DNA of 31,913 bases from a virus. The position numbers and the translations under genes are program-made. The notes below the pieces were generated by a model. That model was not told where the DNA came from, ran no database searches, and saw only the letters and a program-made list of their open reading frames with translations. The DNA lies in IMG/VR virus record IMGVR_UViG_3300045988_119030, positions 149,411-181,323 of that record. One strand, 5' to 3'. Positions 1-20,420 of the stretch are shown here, in pieces (positions within the stretch are counted from its first letter, which is position 1; every line of letters begins with the position of its first letter).

Positions 1-591
1 AGTATACAAACGTGGACAATCAATAGGACATGTCTCATCTACCAGAATCTCAATTCTACTTCTTTTATTTTCTGGAACAGAGTTTAAAAAATCCCAATCT
101 CTATTCTTACGACGAGGAATAACTACACTTTCATAGGTGTCAAGTGCTTTTACAAAATCATAATCTTCCTTTGTAGCTGTAATACTCTTTGTAAGTTTAT
201 AATTAGGAAACTTATCTCGAAGATACTTTTCGAGGATAGGAGAATTAACAATAATTTCATTCATTCCATTATCAAAAAGTTTAAGCATTTCATTACATTG
301 TCTATCATATACATCTGTTTCTTCAAGATTAGGATTTGTAAGGGTAAAACGCAAAATAATATTATTCTTTTCATAAAATTCTCGTACAGCACAGAGATAA
401 TCAATATTATGTTCTGGCATTCCGCCCATAAAACCTCCACCATTCCAAATCATGCCAGGAAGTGCGCCATAAACATATTTTACTTTTGCTTCTGGATAAA
501 AAGCTTGAGGTTCAAGCTCTTGAAGTTCAAGTAATCTATCATAAACATCAATACCATAATAAAATTCAGGGCAATTAAAATTAATATCCAT
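1..591 (-). CDS. Partial CDS (N-terminal 197 codons visible; C-terminus lies beyond window start). Hypothetical protein, last visible gene of the rSAM/YcaO operon
   Basis: Uninterrupted minus-strand frame from ATG 591..589 to position 1 (translated by hand: MDINFNCPEFYYGIDVYDRLLELQELEPQAFYPEAKVKYVYGALPGMIWNGGGFMGGMPEH...). RBS GGAGAA 5 nt upstream. Absent from the ORF track only because no stop lies inside the window. Confidence 0.55.
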   Translation of the reverse strand, partial: MDINFNCPEFYYGIDVYDRLLELQELEPQAFYPEAKVKYVYGALPGMIWNGGGFMGGMPEHNIDYLCAVREFYEKNNIILRFTLTNPNLEETDVYDRQCNEMLKLFDNGMNEIIVNSPILEKYLRDKFPNYKLTKSITATKEDYDFVKALDTYESVVIPRRKNRDWDFLNSVPENKRSRIEILVDETCPIDCPRLYT

Positions 592-604: not shown

Positions 605-2392
605 TCAGTAATTTGCAATCATTGTTTTAAAATCTTTAGAATTAAAAATTTCTCTCATTGGTTCAAGAATACATTTTTCAACCAAATATTTTCTATTTAA
701 GATATTATTAAAATCTTCATTAGTATATTCATAATTATATTCTTTTAAAATATTAATTATTTCATCTTTAGAGTATTTTCTACTTTTTACATAAGAATAT
801 AAATTAAGATACTTTTTAAATTTTTCATAATAAGGACTTACAGTAATATCTACTGCGAATTGATTATCTTCAAGAAGATAGTCTGCGGAATCTTCAAATA
901 AATTTTTTACGAAAATTTCATTAGGAATTGTTTGAATATCTTTATTATTATAAGAAACCAATAAATCTCCTTGAGATAAAAGACCTAAAAATCTATCTGT
1001 TAATATATCGTCCTCAATTAAATCTACAAAATTTAAACAGTCTTTGATTATATTATAAACTCCATCGCCGTTATTTAAATAATTTTGAATATGTTTACAT
1101 TTATTTTTAGTAAGAATTGCACTTTCTTTAAGGGTTTTTAAAGTTTTACATTTATCTAAAAAAGAATACCAAAAGCCGTCAAGATTATTTAAATAAATAT
1201 CAATAGCTACAACCTTATCACTTAAAGATACATCAGCATAATAAATTTCAGCTTCAATAGATTCCGCGATTTTTTTATTCCATTCAAAAATTTCTTCATT
1301 CGAATAATTTTTATCTTCATAAGATAAAAATACATTTTTATTAATAGTATTTACATATTTCTTATGAAAAAAAATATTCTCAGGAAATGTATTTAAATTA
1401 GTAATACAAGATCCACCCATGATAATAATATCGTTATTATCTAATGTTTCATAAGGAAGAATAACAGAAAACTTTCTATCATCATAAGAAAAGCAATTTT
1501 GATACATTTCAGTTAAAATACGTTCAACCGCAATTTCAAATACAGGAAAAGCACCAAAATTAACTGAGATAGTTCCATTTTTATAATTAATAAGAATTCC
1601 CATTACTACTGGAACATTAAACGTTCTTGACATATCAATAATATAATATTTATTGCCATGGGATTCAATAGCATTAATAATCTTAATTAACTTTTCATCA
1701 GTAATACTATTAATATCAACAAAATAATAATCCTTATTAGGATTAGTATAAAAATGACTAACAACATAATGTTCAAAAATTTCTGAAAGTCCTTGATTTA
1801 ATGCCTCAATTATAGTATTACCAGCAGCCATACCTGAACTTCCCTGATAACGCTGAATGAGACGAGGATCTAAATACTTTACATCTTTTTCATTATTTAA
1901 ATTAATATAAGGAATACCAAAAAATTTATTATTATACATAGAAGTAAGACAATCTTTAATTATATAATTAGTTTCTTCGTCAAAAGAATTAAAAAACTTA
2001 TACATTAAAGAATCTTTTCCACCAAGGGCTTCTTTAAAGTTTACTTCTTTTTCATTTCTAAATAATGAATAATTATAATTTTTTTGGTTTACTTTGATTT
2101 TTTCATTACACAAAAAAGGATTACATAAATAATGTAATCCATTGCAAAATCTTTCATACATTTCAGCATATCCAGAAGCCATAGCGAACTCTTTAGATAC
2201 TCCTTTTCCAAAAGATCTTAAAATAGAATGACCTTTATAGTATAAACGAAGAGCAAGACTCCATGTTGTAGATTGTTCTTGACGTAAAACTTCTTCTATA
2301 CAATAAAAGCCTCGATCCGCAAAGAATTGCTTAATATTATTTACTGTATCTAAAGGATTAGTTTCTTTATAATGCTGTGAATAATTATTCAT
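605..2392 (-). CDS. ycaO: YcaO-domain protein (ATP-dependent amide-backbone activating enzyme family), 595 aa, stand-alone E. coli YcaO-like size
   Basis: Hallmark YcaO motifs seen in translation: SFGKGVSKEFAMASGYAEMYERF (GKG-x-S/T...A.ASxxAExxER) and YQGSSGMAAGNTIIEALNQGLSEIFEHY (SxGxAAG...EAxxxGLxExxE). TGA stop. No in-frame TAG. Confidence 0.75.
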   Translation of the reverse strand: MNNYSQHYKETNPLDTVNNIKQFFADRGFYCIEEVLRQEQSTTWSLALRLYYKGHSILRSFGKGVSKEFAMASGYAEMYERFCNGLHYLCNPFLCNEKIKVNQKNYNYSLFRNEKEVNFKEALGGKDSLMYKFFNSFDEETNYIIKDCLTSMYNNKFFGIPYINLNNEKDVKYLDPRLIQRYQGSSGMAAGNTIIEALNQGLSEIFEHYVVSHFYTNPNKDYYFVDINSITDEKLIKIINAIESHGNKYYIIDMSRTFNVPVVMGILINYKNGTISVNFGAFPVFEIAVERILTEMYQNCFSYDDRKFSVILPYETLDNNDIIIMGGSCITNLNTFPENIFFHKKYVNTINKNVFLSYEDKNYSNEEIFEWNKKIAESIEAEIYYADVSLSDKVVAIDIYLNNLDGFWYSFLDKCKTLKTLKESAILTKNKCKHIQNYLNNGDGVYNIIKDCLNFVDLIEDDILTDRFLGLLSQGDLLVSYNNKDIQTIPNEIFVKNLFEDSADYLLEDNQFAVDITVSPYYEKFKKYLNLYSYVKSRKYSKDEIINILKEYNYEYTNEDFNNILNRKYLVEKCILEPMREIFNSKDFKTMIANY

Positions 2393-2440
2393 ATGATATT
2401 ATGCCTTTCTTTTTTCTATCATATAAATATATTACTATAT

Positions 2441-2492
2441 TTTTTTAATAAAGTCAAAAACCTACCATTTTATTTGGTAGTTTTTGACTTTA
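2441..2492 (-). promoter_or_regulatory. 16-bp near-perfect inverted repeat (AAAGTCAAAAACCTACC / GGTAGTTTTTGACTTT) directly after the stop of gene 2493..2996. It embeds a TTGACT -35-like hexamer 17 nt from TAATAT. Candidate terminator/promoter junction for ycaO
   Basis: Stem-loop read directly. Lacks a clean U-tract on either strand, so its terminator role is uncertain. Confidence 0.3.
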
Positions 2493-2996
2493 TTAAATTG
2501 AATAAAAGCAATTAGGACATAAATACTAATTATCATCTATTTTAAATAATGGAATATTACTTACTTGTAAATTACATTTAAAGCATTGTTTATTTTTATA
2601 AATTTTTGGTATAAAAATTTCTATATTTGGCTCAAATAAATTTAAAAGATTATTAGATATTTTTTGAAAGTAAATATCTTTTTCTTTATTAGTATCATTA
2701 TAATTATATTGTAAAATATATTTACATATTACTTTACAATGATTTAAATTAGTTAATTTTAATTCTTCTACTGGAATAATAATATCAGATATATTATCTA
2801 AATTTATTTTAGATTTAATTGTATATTGTATTTGAAGAATTATAGTTTTATCTTTTTTAATAATTCCTAAATTAAAGCAAACAAAAAGTATCCAATAGTC
2901 ATAAATACTATTACTGTCAAAATCAAAAGATAAAGCTCTTATTTTATCCCAAAAGATTTGTTCTGGAATTTTAAATCCGCCATTACTAAATTTCAT
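2493..2996 (-). CDS. Hypothetical protein (~167 aa) with C-terminal 4-Cys zinc ribbon (CFKC...CPNC). Contains an in-frame TAG at 2526-2528
   Basis: Track ORF 2526..2996 ends in TAG. The frame continues QYLCPNCFYSI to a TAA at 2493-2495. RBS GGAGAG before ATG 2996. Confidence 0.5.
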
Positions 2997-3154
2997 TTAA
3001 CTCTCCATTAAAACAATACTCATAATAATTATTTGTATCTTTTTCAATTTGAATACTCCGAGGATAATCTAACTCCCAAGATGTTCTTTTATTATAAAAC
3101 TATAAAAAATTTTTTACTATATCTTGTATAAATTCTTTATATTCATCGTAAGTA

Positions 3155-5212
3155 TCAATCATATAAATCATACTCTTCTTTCTCAAGATAATTTAAAAAT
3201 TGATCATGGGCAAATTGATAATATATATATCCATTAAAATAATTTAATATTGGATATATTTCTTTTTTTAAATTATCAAATGATTTAATATATTCTCCAT
3301 CTAAACAATGAAAATTAATAGTATTGTTTTTTATATCACCTATAATTTTTTTACTTAAAGGGCATAAACAATCATTATTTATTTGTTTTAAAGGATAAAT
3401 TAAATTTATTTTATATAAAATATAATAACTTGTTTTAATAAAATTTTCTATAAAATAATTATTATGTTTTGTATAAATTAAATTATCATATTCATAAAAA
3501 TATTTTATTTCATATAAAATTCTAATAATTATTGATTGTAATATTTTATTTTTTTTATCTAAATTTAAATTATAGATATAAAGAAACTGTAAAAAGAAAA
3601 TAACTATTTTTACTAAATAATCTATAGCCTCAGACAATCCCGTATGAGATATGTTACCTGGATTAGTATTTAAATCAATTATATAATTTCCAATAGTCTA
3701 ATCAATTAGTTGTCCTTCTCCATATAAATTACATAAATCAAAAAATAAACTATCTTCGCATAAACAAAAATTACTATATTTTATATTATATTTCTATAAA
3801 AAACTTCGTTTTAAAAGTAATCCAAGTTTATTATCAGGAATAATAAACTATATAAAATCATTTTTTTCGTTATTTTTTATAAAATTATAAAGAATTTCTA
3901 ATTCATTATTTATATTAAATAAATCATCTGAATCCCAAAATAAAACATATTCATTAAAAGAATTTTCTAATCCTACGTTTCGTGCGACTCCAGGTCCTTT
4001 ACGAGTAAGATTTTTAAAAAAGAAACAAGGAAAATCCGCGTTATCAAATATTTTAATAACTTTTCTCTCACAAGCTGAATTATCACTTATTAAATATATA
4101 CAACAATCTTTAATAATTGTTTGCGCTCTTAATGAATTATATAAATCAATTATCTAATTATCATTAAGGTTATAATAAGGAATAATTATATCTATTTTGC
4201 CATCAATAAATCTATTTATACATTTTTGTAAATAGTAATTATTATATCGAAAGTCAATTGGAGTTTTACCATTTAAAAATTCCTAATAATTATTTAAAAA
4301 ATCTTCTTTATTATTTATAAGTTTTAAATAAAAGTCGTAGTCTTCAAAATAAGCATTTTCCATTGATACAGTAAATTCTGATTTAATGTTATAACATTTA
4401 TGCCATAGCCAAGAAGCGGTTGGTAAAGTAGCATCACAATATTTACAAATTTTCTTAGGTGAAAATATAAAATTATGTAAATCATCTAAGCTATTTATAT
4501 CTTCTAACTACAAATAATCTTCTTCCTCTTCTGGAATATTCAAATTATATTTTTTACAATAAATATCTAAGAATGCGGAAAAAGGACAGATATATATCTT
4601 ATAATTTTTTAATGTAAAACAAGGTATTTCATGTGGACAATATTGATAATAAGCCTTTGCTGGATCAGTATCTCCATTTTCATTTACAAGCTACTAACGC
4701 ATAAATAATCGCTCTTGATGATTAAAAGCAATACCATATTCTTGGCATTCTTCAACATCTTCATAATTTGTATAATTACTATAAGCAGTTATGTCGAACA
4801 TTATATCCATATCAAGGTATTCTTTTTTATGTTTAATAATATTTTTCATATTTAATCCATTAGATAAAACTTTTAATTGAGTTTTTTCTTTTGGAAATAT
4901 TTCACGAGCTATTTTACATAATTCAAATAGTTGTGGGTGAAGAGTTGGCTCTCCACCCACAATCATAAATACTTTTATATTAGGAATTTTTTTATTAGCC
5001 ATAATAACCTAATTGCGGAAATCATTTATATCAATAAACCAAGGCGTGGCTAAAGGTGAAAAATGATTACATCCCGCGCAATTAAGATTACAATGATCTA
5101 CTACTTGTATTTCTAAGCTTACACCATCATAAACAGATTTCCAAAGACTATGTGTATATGGAGGAATCCCACGATAATCTTTATCTTTCTTTATCTGTAT
5201 ATCGTTCATCAA
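3155..5212 (-). CDS. Radical SAM enzyme (N-terminal) fused to or translationally coupled with a GT-A/family-2 glycosyltransferase domain plus a C-terminal domain of unknown function. 12 in-frame TAG codons, including a TAG-TAG pair at 4691-4696
   Basis: One frame from ATG 5212 to TGA 3155-3157 with zero TAA/TGA. It links track ORFs 5009..5212, 4694..5002 and 3155..3637. Motifs: CNLNCAGC (CX3CX2C) and GGEPTLHP (rSAM). IDIIIPYYN...SLRAQT, ARNVGLENSFNEYVLFWDSDD (GT2 Rossmann start, ARN...DxDD). Cys-rich stretch after the rSAM core. Confidence 0.6.
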
Positions 5213-5762
5213 ATTCTCCTAATATATGTGTATTATAATCAACTAATTCTCTTATTTGATTATTGCGTTCATGTAAAAAACATTGAGTACAAATTTCATT
5301 TAAATTGTTTAAAGGTTCATGGAAAAAATTGCAATAATGTTTTTCAAAATCAACATATTTACAATACTTATCGCATATTAAAATATTACTATCTTTATTA
5401 TAAATCACAGGATGATCTTCTCGTAAGCGGAAAGATAGCTGAATTTTAAACATTAAAGTTCCTTGATAAGAATATAAAAAAGTTTTATAAAATATATCTT
5501 GGACTTTACTTTCAAAAGTAAATTTCTATTTATCTGTAGTAATAAGCTCAATGCATTCTATTTCATTCTAATCTATAGCTTTAACTTGCTAATAAACCTA
5601 ATTTAGAAAAGAATAATCAATATCATTCTAATTTTTAATTATTTTTGCAAAAACTATTTCTTTTGGAAAATTTAATTGAAATATAATATCATCACATTGA
5701 CGCTCATTAAATTTAACAGATTTTAAAATTTCTTTATCTGAATTAATAAAATTAATAACCAT
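5181..5762 (-). CDS. Hypothetical small Cys-rich protein (CDKYCKY...HYCNFF...CTQCF). Possible N-terminal extension to ATG 5762 containing 6 in-frame TAGs. The core 5181..5453 is a clean ORF
   Basis: Frame from ATG 5762 runs into track ORF 5181..5453 with only TAG interruptions. The high TAG density makes the extension uncertain. Overlaps the rSAM start by 32 nt. Confidence 0.3.
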
Positions 5763-6090
5763 TTCGTTTATCAGGAATTCCTTTTAATCGATCTCCTAAG
5801 AAATATCTATATAATTCATAAGAATCAGCAATATTATCGCATAAACAATTATTATTATTTTCATTGTTATTATTATCGTTATTATTATTATTATTATTAG
5901 ATTTTTCTGCATGATCTGTAATAATTATTTTAATGAAATTATTGATAATAGTATTAATTTCTTCATTTTCACCATTATTTTCAATCCAATTTAAATAAAT
6001 AACATATAAAAGATCTCTATAATCTTCTACATTGCTATAATCAAAAGTTTCAATTAAATGATTAATTTGATTTTTCATTTCTTCAATCAT
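5752..6090 (-). CDS. Small Asn-rich protein (112 aa) with a poly-N tract and a C-terminal CLC motif. Candidate precursor peptide or accessory protein of the rSAM-SPASM enzyme
   Basis: ORF overlaps the stop of the upstream rSAM-SPASM gene (ATGATTGA coupling). Low-complexity KSNNNNNNNDNNNNENNNNCLCDN. Confidence 0.5.
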   Translation of the reverse strand: MIEEMKNQINHLIETFDYSNVEDYRDLLYVIYLNWIENNGENEEINTIINNFIKIIITDHAEKSNNNNNNNDNNNNENNNNCLCDNIADSYELYRYFLGDRLKGIPDKRNGY

Positions 6091-7489
6091 TGTAATACCC
6101 CAAATTATGGCAAAGATTTAACCAATTTTCTTTATATTTTTCATCTGGAAAATAATTTTTTTCTAAAGCAATTTTAGTTAATCCTAATTCACAATAACTT
6201 TTAACTAAAAAAGATATTCTTGTTTTATGTAATTCACAAACACTTTTAGGCGGTAAAAATAAATCTCCAGTAGCTTCGAGTGCCGCACCAAGGCAAAGTT
6301 TTAAACAAAACGGATCATAAGGACAAGTAACACATCCAACATTTAAATGAGTATTGTTTGTCTTAATTACTGTATAAAGACTTGGATTAATTGCTGTAAT
6401 TCCAATAATTTTATCATTTTCAACTTCAAATTTACCGCCAATAAATTGCTGATAAGAAGTTCTGTGGCAAGGAACTAATTCCATAGTAGCAACATATAAA
6501 CAAGTTTGATGAGAAATTGCACAAGTGTAATTTCCATCTTTCCAAGTGACAGTTGGTTGTAATGGATCATAATTGTGTAATCCAATTAAAGATCCTTCTT
6601 CCCCATCTCCTAAAAAGATATGTCGAGCTAACTTATCTAATGAACTATCATTCATTTGGAATCTAATTTCAAGCATGTGAGTTAAGAATTCAAGATAGTG
6701 ATTTAATTTTTCTTCAGTCCATTCATCATTACGAACTTCTAAGAACATGGGCTGAAATTCATCGCGAGGCCCTTTACATAATTTATATTTCTCAAATTGT
6801 TCAAGCCACCAATCATAATTTTTAATAGCGCTTTCAATATTATTTGGAGAAATCATTGGATGAATACCGCAACAGTTCTTAGAAAGAAATTGCATAATCT
6901 TATCATAATATTCAAAATCTTTATTTTCTTCTCTTACACTATCATAAGGACCATCTACAGAACAAGATAAATTTAATTCCATTTCAAGGTCAAGAAATTT
7001 TTGAAGATATTCTTCCACTTTAGCTGCTTTTTTATCATCAGCAACAAAACTAAAGTTATTGGGGAAAGCAATACGAGGATGATGATTCTTAAAAAGATTA
7101 GGATGTTCTTCAAAGAGAGCTCCATAATATTTTAAAAGTAAATCAAAAATACTAAAGCCTAAATTATCATAAAATAAATCTCCAGCAAAGAGTTCTATTT
7201 CAAGGAATAAGACTTTTCTTTCGTTAAAAATATAATCTAATATAATGTTCATATTTTTAAGAATTTTTTCATTATTTGCTCTTGTTTCAAGTGGGTATAA
7301 ATCTTTTCCGTAACGAGCAATATAACAATATTCACACTTTTGATTACATTCTGGACGAATAATAAACTCAAAAGAGCTTTCATTTATCCAATATCCTTCT
7401 TCTTTATCCCCTTGATTAAAGCAATGGTTATCAAGAAATTTTTCAAAATATTTATTATTATCTAAAATACAACCTTCACTAATATTCAT
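6083..7489 (-). CDS. Radical SAM / SPASM-domain enzyme (peptide/protein-modifying maturase class), 468 aa
   Basis: CNQKCEYC (CX3CX2C) near the N-terminus. C-terminal CAISHQTC...C and GCVTCPYDPFCLKLC (CX2CX5CX3C SPASM signature). Start overlaps the TAA of the upstream gene by 1 nt. Confidence 0.8.
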   Translation of the reverse strand: MNISEGCILDNNKYFEKFLDNHCFNQGDKEEGYWINESSFEFIIRPECNQKCEYCYIARYGKDLYPLETRANNEKILKNMNIILDYIFNERKVLFLEIELFAGDLFYDNLGFSIFDLLLKYYGALFEEHPNLFKNHHPRIAFPNNFSFVADDKKAAKVEEYLQKFLDLEMELNLSCSVDGPYDSVREENKDFEYYDKIMQFLSKNCCGIHPMISPNNIESAIKNYDWWLEQFEKYKLCKGPRDEFQPMFLEVRNDEWTEEKLNHYLEFLTHMLEIRFQMNDSSLDKLARHIFLGDGEEGSLIGLHNYDPLQPTVTWKDGNYTCAISHQTCLYVATMELVPCHRTSYQQFIGGKFEVENDKIIGITAINPSLYTVIKTNNTHLNVGCVTCPYDPFCLKLCLGAALEATGDLFLPPKSVCELHKTRISFLVKSYCELGLTKIALEKNYFPDEKYKENWLNLCHNLGYYND

Positions 7490-8991
7490 TAATTGTATAC
7501 TCCTTGTTCTGTATATCTATCGTCATCCCAACATTCTTTAGGTAATACCCAATTATTTTCTCTATCAACATAATTATATAAAGCAGAAGAAATTCTTAAA
7601 GTTCCAATGCTTCTTAATAATTCACTACCAGTAGAAACCAAATTATTATAAGTACAAGCAAGATTTTTTGTTGTAATAAAAGCTAAGTGAAGCAATTTAT
7701 TATAATCATATTTATACACTGAATTTAATTGTCCGCACTCATTTAGCATTTGATATTCATTTAAAATAGTTTGAAACATGAATGGAAAAGAAGTGGTTTT
7801 AAATAAATTATATTTATAAAACACCTTATCAATTTCTTCATCTGATGCTGTTAAAAGATTAACACAAGAATGTCCTCTTGTCATTAAGTCTTTACGGGAA
7901 AGAGTGTCAATAGTGCCATCATCTTTAATGTTGTTTGGGTTTATATCAAACATATAATTTTGACAAGATACCATAGTACCGTCCCATAAAAGCTTTAATT
8001 CACTCCAATTAGAGCCACAAAAATTATTCATAGATAATGATCTAATAACTTCTTCATTTTTATCTTTAATGCATTGTAAAGCTTCTTCAATTGTTAAAGG
8101 GCATCCTTTTTGAGTCACATATTCTCCCAAATCGCATAAACTATCTTCATAAACACTTCTATATCCAACGATTAAACTAACTGGCATTCGTGGATCATGA
8201 AAATCAGACACATCAATATTAATTAATCTTTGTAAAAAAGATTCATACTCAATACGCTCATCCACTGATCCGTCTCTTGGATGTTCTGGACAAATAGAAA
8301 CTGAAGGATTAAGCGTAATAGCTTGATTAATAACTTTTTCATTTAATTCATATCCAAAAGTATCTAATTCTTTATAATAATCATGAACTTTTTCAAGAGT
8401 ATCTAATTGATTAATGAGCATTCCAGACAATACACCATGTAATTGTATTGAAATATTTGTATGATTAAATTTAATTTTATTTAATCCCTCTATAACTGTT
8501 GAAATAGTTTGAAAAATACGTTCATTATTTGCATTTCTAATATTATTAGTAGAATAAGCTCCATCATATGAAAATTGAATTGATAAATTCACATCATCTT
8601 GAGTTGTTAATTCATCTACTCTTTTAGCAAAAGCAATTATACGTTCTGGAAAATCCATTCCATTAGTTGAAAAATCAATATTTCTAATATTAGGAAAAAA
8701 TTTAAACCAATCATCTAAATGCTCTGTAATAAGATGAAGTGTTAGTGTTGGTTCTTGACCCCAAAATCCAAAATTATCAATTATATATCTATCAAGGTCT
8801 AATCTTTTAAAAATTTTTTTTACATTTTCAAGATAAGAACCATCAGTTAAAGCTTTAATTGTATCTTGTTGTAATTTAGCAGAACAACCATTTAAACTAT
8901 TTTCTATCATGCAATACTAACAATGTAAATTACACCCACATGAAGATACGAGTGTTACTGCTCTAACATCTATATCTGTATTTTTTTTCAT
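7489..8991 (-). CDS. Radical SAM enzyme (~500 aa) whose CX3CX2C motif is split by an in-frame TAG at 8917-8919 (SSCGCNLHC-TAG-YCM). True start is ATG 8991 with RBS AAAAAGGAG
   Basis: Track ORF starts at 8910. Upstream same-frame reading gives MKKNTDIDVRAVTLVSSCGCNLHC*YCMIENS. GFWGQEPTL aligns with the GGEP motif. Confidence 0.7.
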
Positions 8992-9017
8992 AAATTCTCC
9001 TTTTTCTCTTAAAAAAT

Positions 9018-9770
9018 TTAAGATCTTGATCTTCCTGCTCCACTTCTATTCGCGCTGTTAGAAGTATAAGCCCCTCTATAGGAGCAAGGTCTATAACTGC
9101 CTCTATGAGTATCATTATTAGAGCCTCTATGGCTTGTATAATAAGTATAATTACTTGAATAATTAGAACTATTATAAGCATTATTAGAACTTCTATTAGA
9201 ACCGTTATAAGCATTATTAGAACCTCGATGAGTTCCATCATAAGCATAGTACCCATTTCTATGTGTACCATTATAACTAGCGTCATAAGCATTATTAGAA
9301 GCTCTATAACTACCATTATAGCCACCATCATAAGCATAATTAGAGGCTCTATAACTACCATCATAACTAGCGTCATAAGCATTATTAGAAGCTCTATAAC
9401 TACCATTATAACTACCATCATAAGCATTATTAGAAGCTCTATAACTACCATTATAACTACCATCATAAGCGCAAACCGCGTTTACTTCTTCAAGTTTTGT
9501 CCTAATTTGTGATAATGGAATATATCTAGTTAACTCATTTACTCTTGGGGCTGTAAAGGTGTCAAAAGTTGCTTTTGTACCAACGTAAGATACATTTCTT
9601 AAATTTTCAATTTCGTTCTTTATTGTGATAACATCTCGCGCCCCAACTCTTTGTTTAGTCTTATCAGGAATAGCAGTTCTACTTTGAGAAAATCTTGTTT
9701 GCGCTGTATTTAAGTTATCATATAAAGCACGAACATCAGCCCATGAAATTCGACTTCCTGTTCCTGCCAT
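9018..9770 (-). CDS. Tyr/Asn/Ser/Gly-rich tandem-repeat protein (250 aa): a ~95-aa N-terminal domain followed by ~15-aa repeats AYDGSYNGSYRASNN. Second gene of the operon, just upstream of the three rSAM genes
   Basis: Clean ORF, RBS AAAAAGGAG, TAA stop. Overlapping track ORFs 8963..9466 and 9228..9512 are repeat artefacts. Confidence 0.7.
   Translation of the reverse strand: MAGTGSRISWADVRALYDNLNTAQTRFSQSRTAIPDKTKQRVGARDVITIKNEIENLRNVSYVGTKATFDTFTAPRVNELTRYIPLSQIRTKLEEVNAVCAYDGSYNGSYRASNNAYDGSYNGSYRASNNAYDASYDGSYRASNYAYDGGYNGSYRASNNAYDASYNGTHRNGYYAYDGTHRGSNNAYNGSNRSSNNAYNSSNYSSNYTYYTSHRGSNNDTHRGSYRPCSYRGAYTSNSANRSGAGRSRS
9111..9470. repeat. Tandem direct repeats (45-bp unit, four perfect or near-perfect copies at 9291-9470, degenerate 30/45-bp copies upstream) encoding the repeat tail of the protein above
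   Basis: Exact 45-bp duplication ATTATTAGAAGCTCTATAACTACCATTATAACTACCATCATAAGC at 9381-9425 and 9426-9470. Confidence 0.8.
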
Positions 9771-9784
9771 AATTTTGCTCCTTT

Positions 9785-10195
9785 TTAATTATTAATTGAA
9801 TATTTAATTACAAAATCAACAGAAGAATTATATTCTTGTGCAAAAACTTGGTCCCCAATATCATTACTATACTCAAAAGAAAGTTCTTCAATATCATTTA
9901 ATTTCTTATCAAAAATAACACGATAATCTTCTGAAGTTGTTAAATAAGCAACTGTTATTTTATCCATAGTCTCTCTATTTAACTTTTTAATAATATTAGC
10001 TCCCTATTTAGCCAAATTTACTTTTTCCATATCATATTCTTGGCTAAATTCACGCATACGAAGAAAACAGAATTTGTTTTCAGTATTGGAACTAGAAGTA
10101 ATAGTAAAAGTAATTGGACCTGTAAGGATAGTATCCTCTACGTTTCCATCTTTATTAGTAATAGTAATTTTAAAAGTATTATCTAAATTTACCAT
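9785..10195 (-). CDS. Hypothetical beta-rich protein (136 aa) with one in-frame TAG (10004-10006) that joins track ORFs 10004..10213 and 9785..9967. First gene of the long operon
   Basis: Start ATG 10195 preceded by GAGGAGG at 9-nt spacing. The ORF ending in TAG continues in frame into the next ORF. Confidence 0.55.
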
Positions 10196-10256: not shown

Positions 10257-10344
10257 TTATAAAAAAAAATTTTATTAATTTAATCTTTTTTGATTAAGTA
10301 TTTAAGTCTTTATTTAATTTATATTAATATAATAACAAAAAAAA

Positions 10345-10374
10345 AGAGTAATGTCAAATGACATTACTCTTTAA
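10345..10374 (-). terminator. Rho-independent-like hairpin (AAAGAGTAATGTCA-AA-TGACATTACTCTTT) after gene 10376..10681
   Basis: Perfect 14-bp stem flanked by A/T runs. Confidence 0.55.
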
Positions 10375-10375: not shown

Positions 10376-10681
10376 TTAACTTAATCCTAATCTTGCCTTT
10401 AGATCAGCAATATTTTTCTTTTCATCTGTAGTAATTTCAATCGGGGTTTCTCCACCTGCGGTTGCCCCATCTTCAAAATTCAAAACATTTGAATCCGCGG
10501 TTGCGCCTGCTTCACCGACCGGAGTCTTTGGGCATGTCATACTAATAGCAATCTGAATTCGCTCACCATTCTCATTAGCCCAAAGATAATACTTTTTATC
10601 TCGCTCGCCGATCCAATCAGCGCCAAATACTTCCGCCATTTTCTTAGCGATCTGTTCCTTAGCTACTGCACCTTTAGCCAT
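10376..10681 (-). CDS. Hypothetical protein (101 aa)
   Basis: Clean ORF, TAA stop, ~45% GC. Confidence 0.65.
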   Translation of the reverse strand: MAKGAVAKEQIAKKMAEVFGADWIGERDKKYYLWANENGERIQIAISMTCPKTPVGEAGATADSNVLNFEDGATAGGETPIEITTDEKKNIADLKARLGLS

Positions 10682-10693
10682 ATCTAATTCTCC

Positions 10694-12127
10694 TTAACTA
10701 AAATTATGTATAAAGTCTTTTAAAGACCTAAAATTATTAACTTTTTCTTCACCAGCATCTCTAAAGCACCAAGGACATAAATACATATCAGTTCCTTTAT
10801 GATAGTGAATATCTTCTGTATAATATAAATTATTACAACATTCGCATCGTTTACAATAAGTATCCGCACAACTATCGCAAACTAATTCATTTTCATCGCC
10901 TACGGAATTTGCTTCGTCAAGGATTATACGAGAACCGCAACAAGCGCAATAACCATAGTTATCGTCTTCGTTTACTCCATAACTGAATTCACAATCTCCG
11001 CATCGCATATATTCTCCACTTTCAATTATAGTTTTACCGCATTGTAAACAAGGAACATCACCACCAATAGACCAATGAGGAAGATCAGTCTTGTCAAATG
11101 GATAATAATACAATTTTAAACTATAAATAGGCAAATAGCAAGAAGAATAAAGCAAATCATTATATTGAAGAGTATGCTCACCAATATCTTCAACGATATC
11201 ACTAATAGGATATAAACGAGACAAAATAGGAATCCATGTTTCAGATAATCCGATAGTCTCTTCTCCAAAAGGAATGCTACTCATCCTATTAGAGACAGTA
11301 GTAATACCTCCGTCTACCCATTCACGCAACTGAAAAGTCTTATCAAAAGTATTGATAATATCTTTAATTTTAATTAAAGCATTGGTTGTCATAAAAGGAT
11401 ATTGACGGCCAGCCATCAAACCGCGTCGCTTATCTTCCATATAAAGAAGCATACGCCATTTCTTAGAATTCCAAAGAACATCTTCGGGAAAGTGCGGAAG
11501 TTTCTGATTCTCTGCTCCGCGCAAATAGCAAATAAAAGTGCTTCTATCTACCATGTAAGATAAATTTCCTGCTCTATATTCACCATCAAGCGCATGGCAA
11601 GAGCGCCAATTATAAGTATTTTCACTTACGCTTAAAAAATCCAAAGGATGAACTGAGAAACATAATGTTCCCTCAATCTTGTCCTCTTGGATAATACGAC
11701 TTGCGTAATTTTGAATATCTTCCAAAGAGCGCGGATTCTCTTCAAAATACTTAAAAGCCTTAACTAATTTCATCCCTCTTGGAATCTTTTTATCCTTATA
11801 GAAATAAGTATCTATAACCGTATTGTTAAAGAATCCTTCTTTGTTTACTGAAATAAAATCCTTTAAGTCTTCATTGTTATAAGTATAATTAATTGTTTCA
11901 AGAAACTCTTCAAGACGATGTTCTTTAGTTTTATCATCTAAGGAAAAAGATACCTTTTCCGGCCATTCATAAATTAAATGACCATGAAAAAATTTAATTA
12001 AGTCTTTTTTGGCTTCGAGGAATCTTTCGAATAGTTCTTCTGTTTTTGGATTACTGATTCCTTGGGAGTAACTGATGACTTTGTTGAACTGTTCTCTAAT
12101 GCTTTCGATGTCGAAGTCATATGACAT
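10694..12127 (-). CDS. Large hypothetical protein (paralog A). Conserved core LCFSVHPLDF...W.SC...GEYRAG...WNSKKWR and a C-terminal tail with at least 5 CxxC zinc-ribbon pairs. Start is probably ATG 12127 (RBS GGAGGA), not the track start at 12148
   Basis: Paralogy with 14635..16239 seen directly in the translations. Confidence 0.7.
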   Translation of the reverse strand: MSYDFDIESIREQFNKVISYSQGISNPKTEELFERFLEAKKDLIKFFHGHLIYEWPEKVSFSLDDKTKEHRLEEFLETINYTYNNEDLKDFISVNKEGFFNNTVIDTYFYKDKKIPRGMKLVKAFKYFEENPRSLEDIQNYASRIIQEDKIEGTLCFSVHPLDFLSVSENTYNWRSCHALDGEYRAGNLSYMVDRSTFICYLRGAENQKLPHFPEDVLWNSKKWRMLLYMEDKRRGLMAGRQYPFMTTNALIKIKDIINTFDKTFQLREWVDGGITTVSNRMSSIPFGEETIGLSETWIPILSRLYPISDIVEDIGEHTLQYNDLLYSSCYLPIYSLKLYYYPFDKTDLPHWSIGGDVPCLQCGKTIIESGEYMRCGDCEFSYGVNEDDNYGYCACCGSRIILDEANSVGDENELVCDSCADTYCKRCECCNNLYYTEDIHYHKGTDMYLCPWCFRDAGEEKVNNFRSLKDFIHNFS

Positions 12128-13104
12128 TTGACTAATCCTCCAATACAATCTTTACAATACTCGCTGTGTGGGTTCGCAGGGTCAATTTCAAATGCCTCTT
12201 CACACTCCGCACACCATTCAACATTACTGGGAATACAATCAGGGCAATAAAAACATGTATGTCCATCTAATCCCTTTACTGGAAATGTTTCATACTCACT
12301 AAATAGCTGACCGCATCCTCTACAATGAACGTAGAATCCATCGCCATCAGTTGGAAAATTCTTACAAATATTATCGAACCAAATATTATGATAATTACGA
12401 TAATACTCAAAATTAGGGATATCTTTCTCTTGGAGCATGCGGATTACCTTATTAATCGTATCAAAAAGAGCACCCGCATTTAATGTTTCAATACGGTTAT
12501 GTTCATTTTTATAACCTACTGAAAGATTTACACCACAAATTTTCCATTCAGGGCATAAAACACTAATATCACTAAACGTGCCAAAATCTTCTACAAATCC
12601 AAAAGATTCAATGTAATCGATGAATTTAGGATTGTAAAGGTCATAAAACACACAATCATTTGTGCCCTGTCTATCCAACTGAATAATATATTTCAAGTTG
12701 GGAAATGGACACTCAAAATATTGTAATACTAATGCTTCGGCGCCCAATCCACCGATTTCTTCATCAGTGGTAAAAATAATAGAAGGGCGCAAAGACGTAT
12801 TTCTCAAAATATGAAGAATCGCATATACTCCTGCTCTATCATCTGCGCCAAGACCATCGGGCGACCAAAGCACATTTTTTCTTGTGTCATAATATAAATC
12901 TTTGACCGGTTTCTCAAACACGGTATCAAGATGAGCTACTAAAGCAATCGGAATATCACCAACCGCACAAACATACTCTTTAGTAATAACTACTTCAGTA
13001 TATTTAGATTTCAATACATCGGCAACATATTCTCTTAACTCATCTTGCGTCGAGCGAACCAGATATTCAAATAACCAAAGTTCATTAGTTTTAAAACCTC
13101 TCAC
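11998..13104 (-). CDS. MH-clan zinc metallopeptidase-like protein (M28/M42-like) with a C-terminal Cys-rich zinc-ribbon tail
   Basis: HLDTV, GADDRAG and DEEIGGLGAEAL motifs (metal ligands of aminopeptidase-type MH-clan enzymes). CRGCG...CFYCPDC...CAECEE...CKDC tail. The last ~40 codons are low-complexity and overlap the next gene by ~130 nt. Confidence 0.65.
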   Translation of the reverse strand: MRGFKTNELWLFEYLVRSTQDELREYVADVLKSKYTEVVITKEYVCAVGDIPIALVAHLDTVFEKPVKDLYYDTRKNVLWSPDGLGADDRAGVYAILHILRNTSLRPSIIFTTDEEIGGLGAEALVLQYFECPFPNLKYIIQLDRQGTNDCVFYDLYNPKFIDYIESFGFVEDFGTFSDISVLCPEWKICGVNLSVGYKNEHNRIETLNAGALFDTINKVIRMLQEKDIPNFEYYRNYHNIWFDNICKNFPTDGDGFYVHCRGCGQLFSEYETFPVKGLDGHTCFYCPDCIPSNVEWCAECEEAFEIDPANPHSEYCKDCIGGLVKCHMTSTSKALENSSTKSSVTPKESVIQKQKNYSKDSSKPKKT

Positions 13105-13155
13105 AGTTTATTCTCCTATCTTTTATCTTATATTTATATTATAACATTATTTTTT

Positions 13156-13956
13156 TTATTTGTCAATTGAGTCCTCTTCCGCCTCGGGGATAGGATTATT
13201 CTGCTTGCTTGCTTGAACGGCTTTATCTATAACACGAGAGAATATAAATGCGGTTTCACAATAATGACACGTCCCTTGTCGTTGACAGCGCTGACCGCAA
13301 TTGATGCGGTTGGGGCCAAAATCTTCGGGGATTCCACGATTATCCGCATTATAATTTAGATTGGTTAATAAAAGGTTTAGATTACCTTGCCAATGACCAC
13401 TTTGATAGATATCCAAAAGCACAGCTTCTTTGGAGAGCGCGGGTTCGTCAAATTCTAAGGTTGAGACATATGTTCCATAATAATCTACATCTTCCGGTCG
13501 GACATAAGAACCGCATATTCCATTTTCTCTTGGAAGGTTATCGTCATAGCATTTATTCGCAATCATACGAATTGGAACTTTTGCTTGCTGATTTAATTGT
13601 CTCAAATCAAACGTAAGCGGTGCCCCGATGAAAAGTTCGCTAACTCTAAGATCAAGGAGAACGCGGACTTCTGCCCATGTAGTAGCGGGATAAGCGAAAT
13701 AATACTTTACATCAATATTACATCCATTACGAGTAAGCATATCTTCAAATGCTACAATAAGATCGACTTTATTCTTAAAGGAATCAATTTCTTCCCAATT
13801 CACTTCTTCGTTTTTGCGGATTCTGATAATATATCGCTTATTGGGGAATTTCTAAATCATATCATACATAATGTTTATATCATTATAATTAACCATAAGC
13901 TCATCAGCCTTCTCGCGGACAACATCAGGTTGACGCACAGAAACACAATATTTCAA
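13156..13956 (-). CDS. Hypothetical protein with a C-terminal Cys cluster (CGQRCQRQGTCHYC). In-frame TAG at 13852-13854. TTG start after AAAGGAG
   Basis: Track ORF 13156..13803 extends upstream in frame through one TAG to TTG 13956. Confidence 0.5.
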
Positions 13957-13980
13957 ATTATATCACTCCTTTATAATATA

Positions 13981-14009
13981 ATTATAACAAAAAACTCCAA
14001 TTTTGTCAA
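13981..14009 (-). promoter_or_regulatory. Sigma70-like promoter TTGACA-N17-TATAAT for gene 13156..13956
   Basis: tgtcaa at 14004-14009 and attata at 13981-13986 on the plus strand, spacer 17 nt. Confidence 0.5.
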
Positions 14010-14082
14010 GAAAATTCTAAACGGCTTTTTACTTTTGGACTTTCGGTGTATGCGACCAGCACCGGTCGGAGCAGATAACAAG

Positions 14083-14114
14083 AAAAAATGGACTGAAAAT
14101 TTTTCAGTCCATTT
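14083..14114 (-). terminator. Hairpin GGACTGAAAA-TTTTTCAGTCC followed by a T-run. Terminator of gene 14128..14544
   Basis: Stem, loop and U-tract read directly. Confidence 0.65.
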
Positions 14115-14127
14115 AATCATTTAACTC

Positions 14128-14544
14128 TTAGTCCTCAGCGACAATCTTGCGATAAGCCACTTTCTTTGAAGCCTTACCGCCATCAGCGCCCGGAATAGAA
14201 ACCTCAGTTTTCTCCGCGCGGTTCTCGCTCACAAGAGTGCGGAGTCGATAACTGGCACGCTGTGCGGAAACACTCTCATCGCCGAGAGCCTTGACGATCT
14301 CAGGGATGGTCATAAACTCATCGTCATAAAGAACATTATAAATCTGCTCAGTCAGCTCATCGCCCTCAGCACGCTTGGCGGCCGCACGCTCCTTAGCCTT
14401 AGCAGTCTTCTTATCAAGCAACTCAATCTCATGCTCGCAAAATGCGATCACATCATTGGGATCATACTTAATCTCACCAGTGTGCATAGCTCCGATAATC
14501 GCGGTCAGATAATCGCGCTTAGAAACCTTAACTTCATTAGTCAT
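14128..14544 (-). CDS. Hypothetical Lys/Ala/Glu-rich protein (138 aa). Markedly GC-rich (~50%) compared with its neighbours
   Basis: Clean ORF. Compositional island. Confidence 0.7.
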   Translation of the reverse strand: MTNEVKVSKRDYLTAIIGAMHTGEIKYDPNDVIAFCEHEIELLDKKTAKAKERAAAKRAEGDELTEQIYNVLYDDEFMTIPEIVKALGDESVSAQRASYRLRTLVSENRAEKTEVSIPGADGGKASKKVAYRKIVAED

Positions 14545-14617
14545 AATTTTTACCTTAACCTTTCATAAATAACAATTTTATTTTTAGGAAGTATTTCTTC
14601 CTTTACCTTACATAAAT

Positions 14618-14646
14618 ATTATATATTATTTTTTTTAAAAAATCAA
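14618..14646 (-). promoter_or_regulatory. Conserved promoter motif TTGATT-N17-TATAAT
   Basis: aatcaa at 14641-14646 and attata at 14618-14623, 17-nt spacer. Same extended motif as the other promoters listed here. Confidence 0.45.
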
Positions 14647-14661
14647 AGAAGGTCTTTGATT
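14629..14661 (-). terminator. Hairpin ATCAAAGACCTTCTTTGAT plus T-run overlapping the stop codon of gene 14635..16239
   Basis: Inverted repeat read directly. Confidence 0.45.
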
Positions 14662-16239
14662 TGGGTTAGTGCCATTAACCCAAGAAATAAACTCCTTTTC
14701 ATTAATATCAAAGAGGTCTCTACCCTTTTTAGTGAGAGTTTCTCCATCGACATAATAATTGGAGCGCCAACCGTCTCTGTCTTCTTCAATTTCACCACTG
14801 AAAAAAGTTTTTACTTTTTTATCTCCACAACAATCCCAACAAATATCCACATAGAATCCAACTGGCTTCTTCTGGAATCGAAGGCGGATTTGCTTCATGT
14901 CATCATAATCTTTGCGGACTCTGCAACAAGGACAAATTTCTGTGCTTTCATCATAACAATAAGCACAGTAAGTTTTTCCATCAACATTATAAGTGTCATC
15001 GACATAAACAATATCGCCACACTTATCGCACTTTACCGCATCCGAACAACTCGTACAAATGGTCATTTCCGCGTTATTCTCTCTATCATCGAGGAGAGAA
15101 TCATCAAGAAGCTCTCCACAACACATACACTCAGATTCACCCGAGTAGTTAAGATCAATGTTTTCGTCCGTAGGAATCTTAGTGGAAACGTAAGCATTAT
15201 GCTCTGAATAGATATCGTTATACATGAAATTGGTATCAAGATTGAAATAAATATTTCTATCAAGCTCACCAATAATATTATTACTGTAATTCTGAATCTT
15301 ATTTAAATACTTGGTATAAGGACCAAAACCAAGATTCTGTTCAGCGAGCTTTTTGATCCAAGCAAGACAAATGCTTTCAAGATTTTCATTACAATAAGGA
15401 TAACCCTTGATGCCAAGAATAAGACTTTTATCTACAATGAAAAGCTCACGCCAGCGCTTGCTATTCCACATAACAGGCTTACCAACCTTATACCAAATTT
15501 CCATATCCTTATCAGATTTAAGGTAAGCTTCGAGGATAATGGGAGAATTCATCATCTCAACGGTTCCCTGACGATACTCGCCACCACCATTCTGCCATCT
15601 CATACAAGAGTCCCAACCGCAATTATTATCACTCATAGTGATATAGTCAAGAGGATGAATAGAAAGACAAAGTTCACCAGAAATATTTTTCTGATTAAGG
15701 AACTGAGAATGAGCAATACGGAACTTTTCATAGATATCGCGGTCAATCTCCAAGATATCACTCATCTTACCAAGCATCTTGCTAAGCTTCATACCCTTAT
15801 TAATCATAAGAGTTTTATTGTTATAAGTGAATTTAAAAGATTCACCATCATAAATATTAGACATTAAAGGATCAACATCCAAAAGACTTGCCAGATTAAA
15901 ATACTGAGTATTAGAGATGGTTGTTTTAAGATAAAGATCTCTTACCTTATTATTAAAGGTATTTCGGAATTCATATCCATCACTATTTCGACCGAAATAA
16001 TCATAAAAATCCTCACTCATCTCTTCATAAGAGCGAGAATAACTTACCTTACGAGAAATGATAAGATTATTTCCCAACATCTTGTAAAGATTCTGCTTAT
16101 TATAAGCCCAAAAACGGAGAATGTAATCGAGAGATGTCTTCATATCGGAACTATCTCCACCGAGACCCGCAAAATTGCGGATATACCCTTCAATCTTTTC
16201 GCAATCTTCTTTGGAAAGGAGTTCAAATAAATTAGCCAT
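14635..16239 (-). CDS. Large hypothetical protein (paralog B, 534 aa). Core LCLSIHPLDY...W.SC...GEYRQG...WNSKRWR and a C-terminal tail of multiple CxxC zinc ribbons
   Basis: Clean ORF. Paralogous to 10694..12127. Confidence 0.8.
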   Translation of the reverse strand: MANLFELLSKEDCEKIEGYIRNFAGLGGDSSDMKTSLDYILRFWAYNKQNLYKMLGNNLIISRKVSYSRSYEEMSEDFYDYFGRNSDGYEFRNTFNNKVRDLYLKTTISNTQYFNLASLLDVDPLMSNIYDGESFKFTYNNKTLMINKGMKLSKMLGKMSDILEIDRDIYEKFRIAHSQFLNQKNISGELCLSIHPLDYITMSDNNCGWDSCMRWQNGGGEYRQGTVEMMNSPIILEAYLKSDKDMEIWYKVGKPVMWNSKRWRELFIVDKSLILGIKGYPYCNENLESICLAWIKKLAEQNLGFGPYTKYLNKIQNYSNNIIGELDRNIYFNLDTNFMYNDIYSEHNAYVSTKIPTDENIDLNYSGESECMCCGELLDDSLLDDRENNAEMTICTSCSDAVKCDKCGDIVYVDDTYNVDGKTYCAYCYDESTEICPCCRVRKDYDDMKQIRLRFQKKPVGFYVDICWDCCGDKKVKTFFSGEIEEDRDGWRSNYYVDGETLTKKGRDLFDINEKEFISWVNGTNPNQRPSLIF

Positions 16240-16290
16240 ATCTTATCAACCTCTTTTTAATATCTTTCTTAACTTTATATATATATATAT

Positions 16291-16319
16291 ATATTATAAT
16301 ATATTTTTTTATAAAAATA
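16291..16319 (-). promoter_or_regulatory. Promoter-like element (TATAAT with a weak -35) for gene 14635..16239
   Basis: Conserved ATAATATATATATAAAGTTAAGAAAG 5'UTR motif. Confidence 0.35.
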
Positions 16320-16355
16320 AAGAAAGCCCTTTGCGGTCAATCAAAGGGCTTTCTT
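16320..16355 (-). terminator. Hairpin GAAAGCCCTTTG-N8-CAAAGGGCTTTC after gene 16377..17744
   Basis: 12-bp perfect stem. Confidence 0.65.
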
Positions 16356-16376
16356 GCGAAAGGGGTTTTATTATAT

Positions 16377-17744: not shown

Positions 17745-17898
17745 TTAGTCTCCTCTCCACTTCTCGTCGGATATATTCCATATCGCTATCCGTCAGAGTG
17801 AGTTCAGTCTAGAAGGTTGTCGCGCCCGCACTAATTTCCTTGATAATTCTTTCAAGTTCCTCAGTGTAATTCGCATAACACATAAACAAATTATCCAT
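17736..17898 (-). CDS. Small protein (~53 aa) with an in-frame TAG (17809-17811). Start and stop overlap both neighbouring genes
   Basis: TAATG start overlap with the gene above. Its TGA stop overlaps the ATG of 16377..17744. Confidence 0.4.
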
Positions 17899-18173
17899 TA
17901 CTCCATCCACTCCAATGTATCTTTATCGTCCCAAAAGAAATCAAACTCAGTATGAGCTTTGCCGTCCTTATCTTTCTTAATAAGGATATCCATCATATGA
18001 GCATGAATACCATCTTCGGGATAATCCATTTCCCAAATTTCACGAATCTTATAACGAGACTTGTGCGGAATGGCTAAATGAGTAATGAATTCTTCGGGAG
18101 TCCAAGTCTCAGTAGCCGTGCAAAACACCAAGCCATAGTGCTCACTATGAATTGCGATTACTTTTTCAATCAT
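17898..18173 (-). CDS. Small hypothetical protein (91 aa)
   Basis: Clean ORF, TAA stop. Confidence 0.6.
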   Translation of the reverse strand: MIEKVIAIHSEHYGLVFCTATETWTPEEFITHLAIPHKSRYKIREIWEMDYPEDGIHAHMMDILIKKDKDGKAHTEFDFFWDDKDTLEWME

Positions 18174-18408
18174 TGTTATCCTCTCCTAATATATCACAAA
18201 TTGCCTGATGACTAAATGTAATCTTCGCTCCAAAATAAGGAACTGTTCTATCATCAGCGATAATAATTTCCACAAAAGCGATATCGTATTTATAGAAATA
18301 TACAATACGCTTAATTGCTTCCAAATAATCAGAAGCTACTATTACACCCTGAAAATCTTCCTTTCCTGGGTCTACTGCATTAACATAAGCTATGTAGTGA
18401 TACTCCAT
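18166..18408 (-). CDS. Small hypothetical protein (80 aa)
   Basis: Clean ORF, TGA stop, 8-nt overlap with the downstream gene. Confidence 0.6.
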   Translation of the reverse strand: MEYHYIAYVNAVDPGKEDFQGVIVASDYLEAIKRIVYFYKYDIAFVEIIIADDRTVPYFGAKITFSHQAICDILGEDNND

Positions 18409-18442
18409 AACAAATAACCTCTTTTCTTATTTTCTATATATA

Positions 18443-18471
18443 TTATATATTATTTTTTATAAAAATGTCAA
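18443..18471 (-). promoter_or_regulatory. Conserved promoter TTGACA-N17-TATAAT
   Basis: tgtcaa at 18466-18471 and attata at 18443-18448. Confidence 0.55.
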
Positions 18472-18478
18472 AAAGATC

Positions 18479-18763: not shown

Positions 18764-18797
18764 ATAAAAAAAAATCCTTTCTTAACTTTCTATAAAT

Positions 18798-18826: not shown

Positions 18827-18846
18827 AAAAAGGACTTTTAATTTAT

Positions 18847-19518: not shown

Positions 19519-19521
19519 AAT

Positions 19522-20417: not shown

Positions 20418-20420
20418 GCT

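Follow-up and report, generated by a model that had tools for sequence, protein, structure and literature searches.

Can an active radical SAM enzyme be made from a gene whose cluster-binding motif is interrupted by an amber codon, and is such an interruption a switch that belongs to this one gene or an ordinary codon of a recoded genome? The question is raised by rSAM-A, a 500-codon gene on the minus strand (7489..8991, stop codon included) of a viral DNA stretch of 31,913 nucleotides, positions 149,411 to 181,323 of the IMG/VR record IMGVR_UViG_3300045988_119030, which in its full length is referred to here as the window. An earlier note on this DNA had taken the in-frame TAG to be translated and to act as a built-in switch for a maturase. 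In the reading that we prefer, at a probability of about 0.85, the window is part of a large phage of about 195 kb using genetic code 15, in which TAG encodes glutamine (Gln), and the TAG in rSAM-A is an ordinary Gln codon.

The rSAM-A reading frame

The frame of rSAM-A extends from ATG 8991-8989 to TAA 7491-7489 and contains a sole in-frame TAG, codon 25 (8917..8919, minus strand), which is located between Cys24 and Cys27 and is here read as Gln. Codons 20-27 (8911..8934, minus strand) give C-N-L-H-C-(TAG)-Y-C, the CX3CX2C cluster-binding motif, and the Cys triad is completed only through translation of TAG 8917-8919. Since the triad is incomplete without readthrough, an active rSAM-A would depend on UAG decoding, and in this respect the earlier note was borne out at the level of sequence. 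Under the standard code the product would be the 24-amino acid (aa) peptide that the note had predicted, and re-initiation at Met28 would lose both Cys20 and Cys24. With TAG translated as Gln, the protein matches the Pfam Radical_SAM profile at 34.7 bits (cut-off 29.5) over residues 16-170. The predicted tryptic peptide spanning codon 25 is AVTLVSSCGCNLHC-X-YCMIENSLNGCSAK, X being the TAG residue.

In the table-11 list of open reading frames (ORFs), rSAM-A starts at ATG 8910 (Met28) and is 473 aa long. ATG 8991, which the earlier note had preferred, is supported as the true start by the homologs, by a strong ribosome-binding site and by the coding character of the upstream frame. The Shine-Dalgarno-like sequence AAAAAGGAG (8997..9005, minus strand) stands 5 nucleotides (nt) from ATG 8991 and is conserved in the loci L001 and L002. 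A search of a large protein collection returned 37 relatives of rSAM-A; 35 of them cover the N-terminus and all of these start upstream with CNLxCxYC, the other two being N-terminally truncated fragments. No full-length homolog begins at the downstream Met or uses a different Cys triad. Cys20, Cys24 and Cys27 are almost invariant in the alignment, and the only other invariant cysteines, C325, C343 and C446, map to the auxiliary-cluster region. The residue between the second and third Cys is variable, being K in relatives of 64-79% identity and otherwise E, S, A, Q or H. Three near-identical genomes (L001, L002 and L003) retain the TAG at codon 25. Synonymous to non-synonymous differences were 4:1 and 2:1 in codons 1-24 and 69:20 and 61:25 in codons 26-500; judged by this pattern, which indicates coding-type selection also 5′ of the TAG, the upstream frame is coding and the ratio is equal on either side. 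Among the GenBank/INPHARED phages there was no match to rSAM-A by tblastn, or to 25 kb of the window by megablast.

TAG as a sense codon

None of the 42 genes delineated in the window ends in TAG; all terminate with TAA or TGA. In-frame TAGs number 27 and are distributed over seven minus-strand genes: nine in a radical SAM-glycosyltransferase fusion (rSAM-GT2), nine in a homing endonuclease, five in p193 and one each in rSAM-A, p167, p136 and p246. A plus-strand ORF holds eight more. The frame 5209..3155 of the fusion gene (684 codons, nine TAGs, no TAA or TGA) yields complete Radical_SAM and Glycos_transf_2 Pfam matches only with readthrough. In related and distant loci (L003, L006 and L008) TAG was likewise never a terminator, and no in-frame TGA or TAA was present.

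The TAGs follow base composition. All but one are in very AT-rich genes, with a GC content at third codon positions (GC3) of 0.08-0.15, and the TAG-rich, AT-rich regions are the cassette 605-10195, to which rSAM-A belongs, and the homing-endonuclease island. No backbone gene (GC3 0.24-0.51) other than p246, with its single TAG, contains the codon. The same split is seen in overall GC content, which is 0.33-0.49 in the backbone 10376-29136, without any TAG other than that of p246 at 13854, and 0.17-0.34 in the cassette. The homing endonuclease (24956-25885, minus strand; PHROG 374, E 2.6e-60), with three Cys-rich repeats and its nine in-frame TAGs, forms an AT-rich island (GC3 0.14) among TAG-free backbone genes. 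Such a distribution suggests either that the cassette and endonuclease came from a source with another mutational regime or that they evolved under such a regime.

The assignment of TAG to Gln was made at the codon level, counting only residues from standard codons aligned to TAG. A 'Q' in database homologs was rejected as evidence for being circular: the proteins P0001, P0140, P0010, P0110 and P0065 cannot be translated under table 11 and therefore come from code-15 gene calls on recoded contigs. Among close relatives, TAG was replaced by CAA or CAG in five of six cases and by CGG in one. In 394 standard-codon residues aligned to TAG, from five lineages and three enzyme families, Gln was observed 60 times against 10.1 expected (5.96x). 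Lys was second commonest (58/394, 1.8x), and the ratios for S, L and Y were 0.67x, 0.77x and 0.44x. BLOSUM62 scores summed over the TAG positions were 218 for Q, 126 for K, 125 for E, 86 for N and -55 for S. CAG is nearly missing from the TAG-containing genes and is used in the TAG-free genes. Within the homing endonuclease, the TAG of repeat 2 (YWKC-TAG-CDCG) aligns with the Gln of repeats 1 and 3, and the motif CNL-TAG-CKYC of the rSAM-A ortholog in L021 aligns with CNLQCKYC in L022. TAG as Gln, that is code 15, is thus well supported by the aligned sequences.

A candidate for the decoding tRNA was found in relatives. In the contig IMGVR_UViG_3300045988_110853 (196 kb), whose cassette proteins are 89-96% identical to those of the window, an array of at least 19 tRNAs begins about 0.9 kb past the last cassette gene. 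A 90-nt tRNA with the anticodon CUA, tRNA(CUA), is present at L009 9078-9167 (56.2 bits against Rfam tRNA, E 5e-11), L023 10829-10918 and L024 1688-1777. In 110853 some 18 kb separate it from rSAM-A, which is upstream of it on the same strand; the distance assumes the adjacency of sequence chunks, with which the tRNA order agrees. It is near-invariant across the contigs 110853, 126226 and 131075 (163-196 kb), which differ in it by a single T-loop substitution, and the sequence directly 5′ of it diverges among the three. It has an unpaired U1.U72, G2-C71 and G73, which we take to be tRNA-Gln-like by the identity elements of GlnRS, and its variable region is enlarged by an unusual, conserved insertion of ~18 nt that is for the most part unpaired. 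A 'tRNA-SeC(tca)' called by ARAGORN in L009 was a false positive, with no Rfam match and a position inside an ORF. A recurring element, TTGACATTTTATAAAAAAT...TATAAT, was noticed between tRNA-array genes of a relative (L001 19790-19830 and 21250-21290).

Some observations weigh against this reading. No standard-code ortholog of rSAM-A was found, every homolog checked residing in a TAG-recoded genome, and the 'Q' shown by database proteins is in part an artefact of code-15 gene calls, which the codon-level analysis circumvents. There is no tRNA within the window, tRNA(CUA) being found only in the relatives with 89-96% identical cassette proteins, and given the ~18-nt insertion its charging identity is not readable from sequence. 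The window's own genome presumably also carries tRNA(CUA), which would be charged with Gln. For phages, code 15 is a published prediction with metaproteomic confirmation (10.1101/2021.08.26.457843; PMC9523058; PMC13037316), incorporation of Gln at UAG having been shown for crAss-like phages only (PMC9523058), and recoded jumbo phages commonly encode CTA suppressor tRNAs (PMC13037316).

With code 15, rSAM-A would be produced as a 500-aa enzyme reading CNLHCQYC, with Gln at the variable position of the motif, and a phage-encoded tRNA(CUA) would be required for decoding. Where TAG acts as a stop, the cell would make no more than the 24-aa peptide. This dependence on TAG decoding would be common to every TAG-containing gene of the phage, and might have an effect on timing. 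It is in keeping with the published general model of timing control, by which recoding holds some genes of these phages back until the phage translation machinery has been set up (10.1101/2021.08.26.457843), a model that is not tied to one gene.

Other explanations of the codon were considered. Were the TAG a genuine stop, rSAM-A would be a pseudogene or an assembly error, or would start at Met28 with other cysteines, and table-11 calling does give the 473-aa ORF from 8910. These readings are contradicted by the identical TAG in four independent assemblies, by coding-type substitutions on both sides of it, by the N-terminal Cys triad of the homologs that cover this end, C325, C343 and C446 belonging to the auxiliary region, by the strong ribosome-binding site before 8991 and by the use of TAG as a sense codon across the window, and we find a genuine stop hardly credible. 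Decoding of TAG as another residue, either Ser, Leu or Tyr, as the long variable region of tRNA(CUA) might suggest, or Lys or pyrrolysine, after its ARAGORN label 'Pyl', is very improbable. The 90-nt length, the ~20 nt between anticodon and T arms, the G73 as in tRNA-Ser and the second place of Lys among the aligned residues would fit such a decoding, as would the finding that no tRNA-Gln(UUG/CUG) was seen in the examined parts of the 110853 array. Opposed to it are the Gln enrichment over K, S, L and Y, the BLOSUM62 sums strongly for Q and the exchanges of TAG with CAA or CAG between near-identical genomes. Moreover, the variable region of tRNA(CUA) is drawn mostly unpaired, unlike the Ser arm, its acceptor and D arms differ from those of the adjacent tRNA-Tyr, and no pyl genes were present among the scanned ORFs. 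Pyrrolysine was also rejected on the structure of the tRNA, since its decoding goes with pylSBCD genes and with a tRNA-Pyl that has a very short variable loop, and Gln fits better than Lys. A derivation of tRNA(CUA) from the neighbouring tRNA-Tyr was ruled out by sequence and by the depletion of Tyr at TAG positions.

The built-in switch of the earlier note, by which TAG would have been selected at codon 25 as a dedicated gate that holds rSAM-A back until suppression is available, is improbable. The TAG does come early in the gene, so that an abortive product would cost little, all four genomes of the clade have it, its neighbours rSAM-B and YcaO are TAG-free, so that TAG content is uneven within the cassette, and regulation by recoding is a published hypothesis (10.1101/2021.08.26.457843). 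In all other lineages, however, codon 25 is AAA or TCT: the sister clade of 64-79% identity has Lys (AAA in L014-L016), and in nine further IMG/VR loci AAA was found in eight and TCT in one. Codon 25 is one of 18 Gln codons of rSAM-A, the orthologs contain from 0 to 12 TAGs at positions that are not fixed, and other cassette genes hold up to nine TAGs, so no single codon gates the cassette; conservation within a clade of 95-99% identity is predicted by descent alone. The TAG of L021 occupies a different variable position of the same Cys motif, and a TAG falling within the motif does not clearly exceed what chance would give. As TAG is a genome-wide sense codon and at codon 25 is restricted to the window's clade and to a variable position, a dedicated switch is therefore not supported. 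The TAG at codon 25 is one instance of the known code-15 phenomenon and no device specific to rSAM-A. Being single and at a permissive position, it makes rSAM-A a clean test case for UAG decoding in supE versus wild-type Escherichia coli.

The cassette around rSAM-A

The novelty of the TAG itself is low, code 15 being a known alternative genetic code; the cassette in which rSAM-A is embedded is the more unusual part. Its gene order on the minus strand is p136, p250, rSAM-A, rSAM-B, p112, p193, the rSAM-GT2 fusion, p167, YcaO and p292. The core trio of repeat protein, rSAM-A and rSAM-B was syntenic in every lineage examined (the window, L006, L008, L010 and L014-L022), with the module present twice in tandem in L010, and all carriers of the cassette were TAG-recoded contigs of about 100-200 kb.

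rSAM-A belongs to the Radical SAM superfamily (PF04055), the CX3CX2C motif and the rSAM core fold both being present. Its AlphaFold2 (AF2) model was confident (pLDDT 89.7, pTM 0.89), and the best fold matches were peptide or protein maturases; the closest known enzymes of this SPASM/twitch kind are ChlB (9gm3), TigE (8vpo), CteB (5wgg), anSME (4k36) and SuiB (5v1q). TigE, the substrate of which is a repeat-motif precursor (PMC10878394), was the only significant sequence match in the PDB (E 2e-7, core only). In the twitch/SPASM-like C-terminal half, C325-x12-G338-x4-C343 and C446 are conserved. Of the SPASM pattern for two auxiliary clusters (CX9-15GX4C plus CX2CX5CX3C, with seven to eight conserved Cys), the CX2CX5CX3C element is missing and C446 is the only further conserved cysteine; rSAM-A is therefore twitch-like. 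The term maturase began as a guess in the earlier note; the modelled fold and the synteny make it plausible.

The start of rSAM-B (6083..7489, minus strand), the second radical SAM gene, overlaps the stop of rSAM-A. It has the motif CNQKCEYC, a full SPASM CX2CX5CX3C (GCVTCPYDPFCLKLC), no TAG, and weak SPASM and HxsB matches (HxsB 20 bits, cut-off 370 bits). The third radical SAM gene is the rSAM-GT2 fusion (3155..5209, minus strand), in which CNLNCAGC is combined with a family-2 glycosyltransferase (PF00535, 7e-14; PF04055, 1e-7) over 684 codons; 111 homologs were found, many on contigs of 150-210 kb.

Directly upstream of rSAM-A lies p250 (9018..9770, minus strand), the putative substrate of rSAM-A and rSAM-B, with a conserved N-domain of ~95 aa followed by degenerate 15-aa repeats of Tyr, Ser, Asn, Gly and Arg (AYDGSYNGSYRASNN...). 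Homologs in other lineages share this N-domain and have aromatic/Asn/Ser/Gly repeats particular to each lineage (GSYDGSY..., FSFSGNFGFHSS..., NYSYNSGNYSYN..., NSSFNSSNYGFNSSF...), and the family, which comprises 93 clusters, retains a conserved SSNYSSNYTYYT block and a YRGAYTSNSTNRSGAGRSRS tail. Proteins 77-97% identical to each other were 205, 220, 235 and 250 aa long, that is in steps of the 15-aa repeat unit, and p250-family proteins of near-identical strains differed by whole 15-aa units (205, 220, 235, 250, 277 aa). In every locus examined, the gene immediately preceding the rSAM-A ortholog was a p250 homolog, even where enzyme identity fell to 30-38%; this holds for the window's clade and for 12 further lineages or module copies.

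The remaining genes of the cassette are all on the minus strand. The first is p136 (9785..10195), with one in-frame TAG. p112 (5752..6090) is a small protein that other lineages also have downstream of rSAM-B, with an LLYIIYN motif in L006 (92 aa) and L008 (146 aa). p193 (5181..5762) is Cys-rich, contains five in-frame TAGs and is called as a 193-aa gene in L003, and p167 (2493..2996) is a CxxC...CxxC protein with one in-frame TAG. A YcaO-domain protein of 595 aa without TAG (605..2392; PF02624, 7e-26) was found in the window's lineage alone and is missing from the L006, L008 and L010 modules. The conserved last gene of the module, p292, is represented by its N-terminal part (1..591) and runs off the window. 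None of p250, p112, p136, p167, p193 and p292 had a match in Pfam, PHROGs or NCBIfam. Upstream of p136, at the GC drop, a terminator-like hairpin (10372-10343) overlaps a near-consensus promoter-like TTGACA-17-TATTAT with TG (10357-10329), these being consensus matches only; the site (10329..10372, minus strand) probably marks the start of the cassette transcription unit.

As a p250 homolog is directly upstream in all loci examined, we propose, at lower confidence, that rSAM-A and the SPASM enzyme rSAM-B would modify the aromatic/Asn/Ser repeat region of p250. Tentatively, and at somewhat less than even odds, rSAM-A may be part of an undescribed phage-borne cassette for post-translational modification, made up of a p250-type substrate, the paired twitch/SPASM enzymes, the rSAM-GT2 fusion, accessory proteins and, in this lineage, YcaO; its product, formed in the course of infection, would be a repeat protein or peptide bearing cross-links, glycans or both. 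Two points tell against such a function: in the NCBIfam scan neither rSAM-A nor rSAM-B reached any cut-off, and the AF2 model of p250, in which the repeats are predicted to be disordered, is of low confidence (pLDDT 37). In the literature we found no description of a phage rSAM/YcaO/glycosyltransferase cassette, and two recoding surveys (10.1101/2021.08.26.457843 and PMC13037316) do not mention radical SAM. If the proposal is true, large recoded phages would possess a novel type of protein or peptide modification system, in which several radical SAM enzymes are tied to a hypervariable repeat protein. Standard-code annotation cuts rSAM-A back to Met28, with the loss of two of three cluster ligands, and breaks the rSAM-GT2 gene into pieces, and the biosynthetic content of such phages stays hidden unless code 15 is used.

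Further features were observed in the window and in related loci. Glycine-rich, tail-fibre-like proteins (PF12810 ALK_LTK_GRD) adjoin the cassette in two lineages (L003 16709-18815 and L006 7424-9319). Within intergenic gaps, TTGACA-17-TATAAT sites that are perfect or nearly so, with the -10 extended by TG, were found at 13981-14009, 13138-13166 and 10329-10357 (minus strand); overall, promoter-like sites were not above the shuffled expectation (102 versus 99). An origin-like region (29280-30308) shows a strand switch and the cumulative GC-skew minimum, and contains four iteron-like direct repeats of about 36 nt (29424-29612) and shorter repeats. Downstream of the iteron-like repeats lies the plus-strand ORF with eight in-frame TAGs (29658-30308), which is winged-helix-like.

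Likeness to known systems

In its use of TAG the window resembles the code-15 gut phages, that is the Lak, crAss-like and 'gemstone' clades (10.1101/2021.08.26.457843, PMC9523058, PMC13037316). In-frame TAGs in conserved genes, termination by codons other than TAG, a large array of phage tRNAs that includes a tRNA(CUA) (here in the relatives), a mosaic of TAG-free, probably early genes beside TAG modules and a genome of about 190-200 kb are common to both. The window differs from them in that its TAGs are concentrated in a biosynthetic cassette and a homing endonuclease, both islands of very high AT content (GC3 0.08-0.15), in having no recognisable structural or lysis genes among these islands, and in the unusual variable-region insertion of the suppressor tRNA.

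With the SPASM/twitch maturases ChlB, TigE, CteB, anSME and SuiB, rSAM-A shares a sequence identity of 13-15%. In contrast to them, it has no evident N-terminal RRE domain, its rSAM motif starting at residue 20, it lacks CX2CX5CX3C and has three conserved auxiliary cysteines, its putative substrate is 160-280 aa long with a folded-looking N-domain, far above a short leader-core peptide, and the genes are phage-encoded. The YcaO protein stands beside radical SAM genes like the E. coli-type YcaO, which is accessory to the radical SAM methylthiotransferase RimO. Its best NCBIfam match, YcaO_for_S12, scored 97.5 bits against a cut-off of 700 bits, and it is therefore no equivalog of the E. coli-type protein.

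Among systems with repeat precursors, the triceptide enzymes are SPASM rSAMs that crosslink an aromatic residue (Trp, Phe, Tyr or His) at position i to the C-beta of Asn, Asp, Arg, Ser or Ala at i+2 (PMC11002830). In the 3-CyFE systems (XncB, OscB, MscB, YxdB and HaaB) the motifs acted upon are short and repeated; the repeats of the p250 family are rich in F/W/Y-N-S, Y-x-S and Y-R-A, but the protein is long for an adjacent precursor with aromatic-X-X motifs, and a cross-link in it would be hypothetical. Neither rSAM-A nor rSAM-B has an NCBIfam Xye, Grr or Fxs match at E<=0.01, and membership in the triceptide 3-CyFE/Xye-Grr-Fxs group or in the other repeat-precursor families named below is not supported. 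Paired rSAM genes are found both here and in the HxsA/B/C His-Xaa-Ser system (HxsB/HxsC), and relative to the triceptide and Hxs systems the cassette adds the rSAM-GT2 fusion and, in one lineage, YcaO. In its layout, the cassette resembles the repeat-precursor rSAM systems represented by the triceptides, Hxs and TvgB/TigE (PMC11002830).

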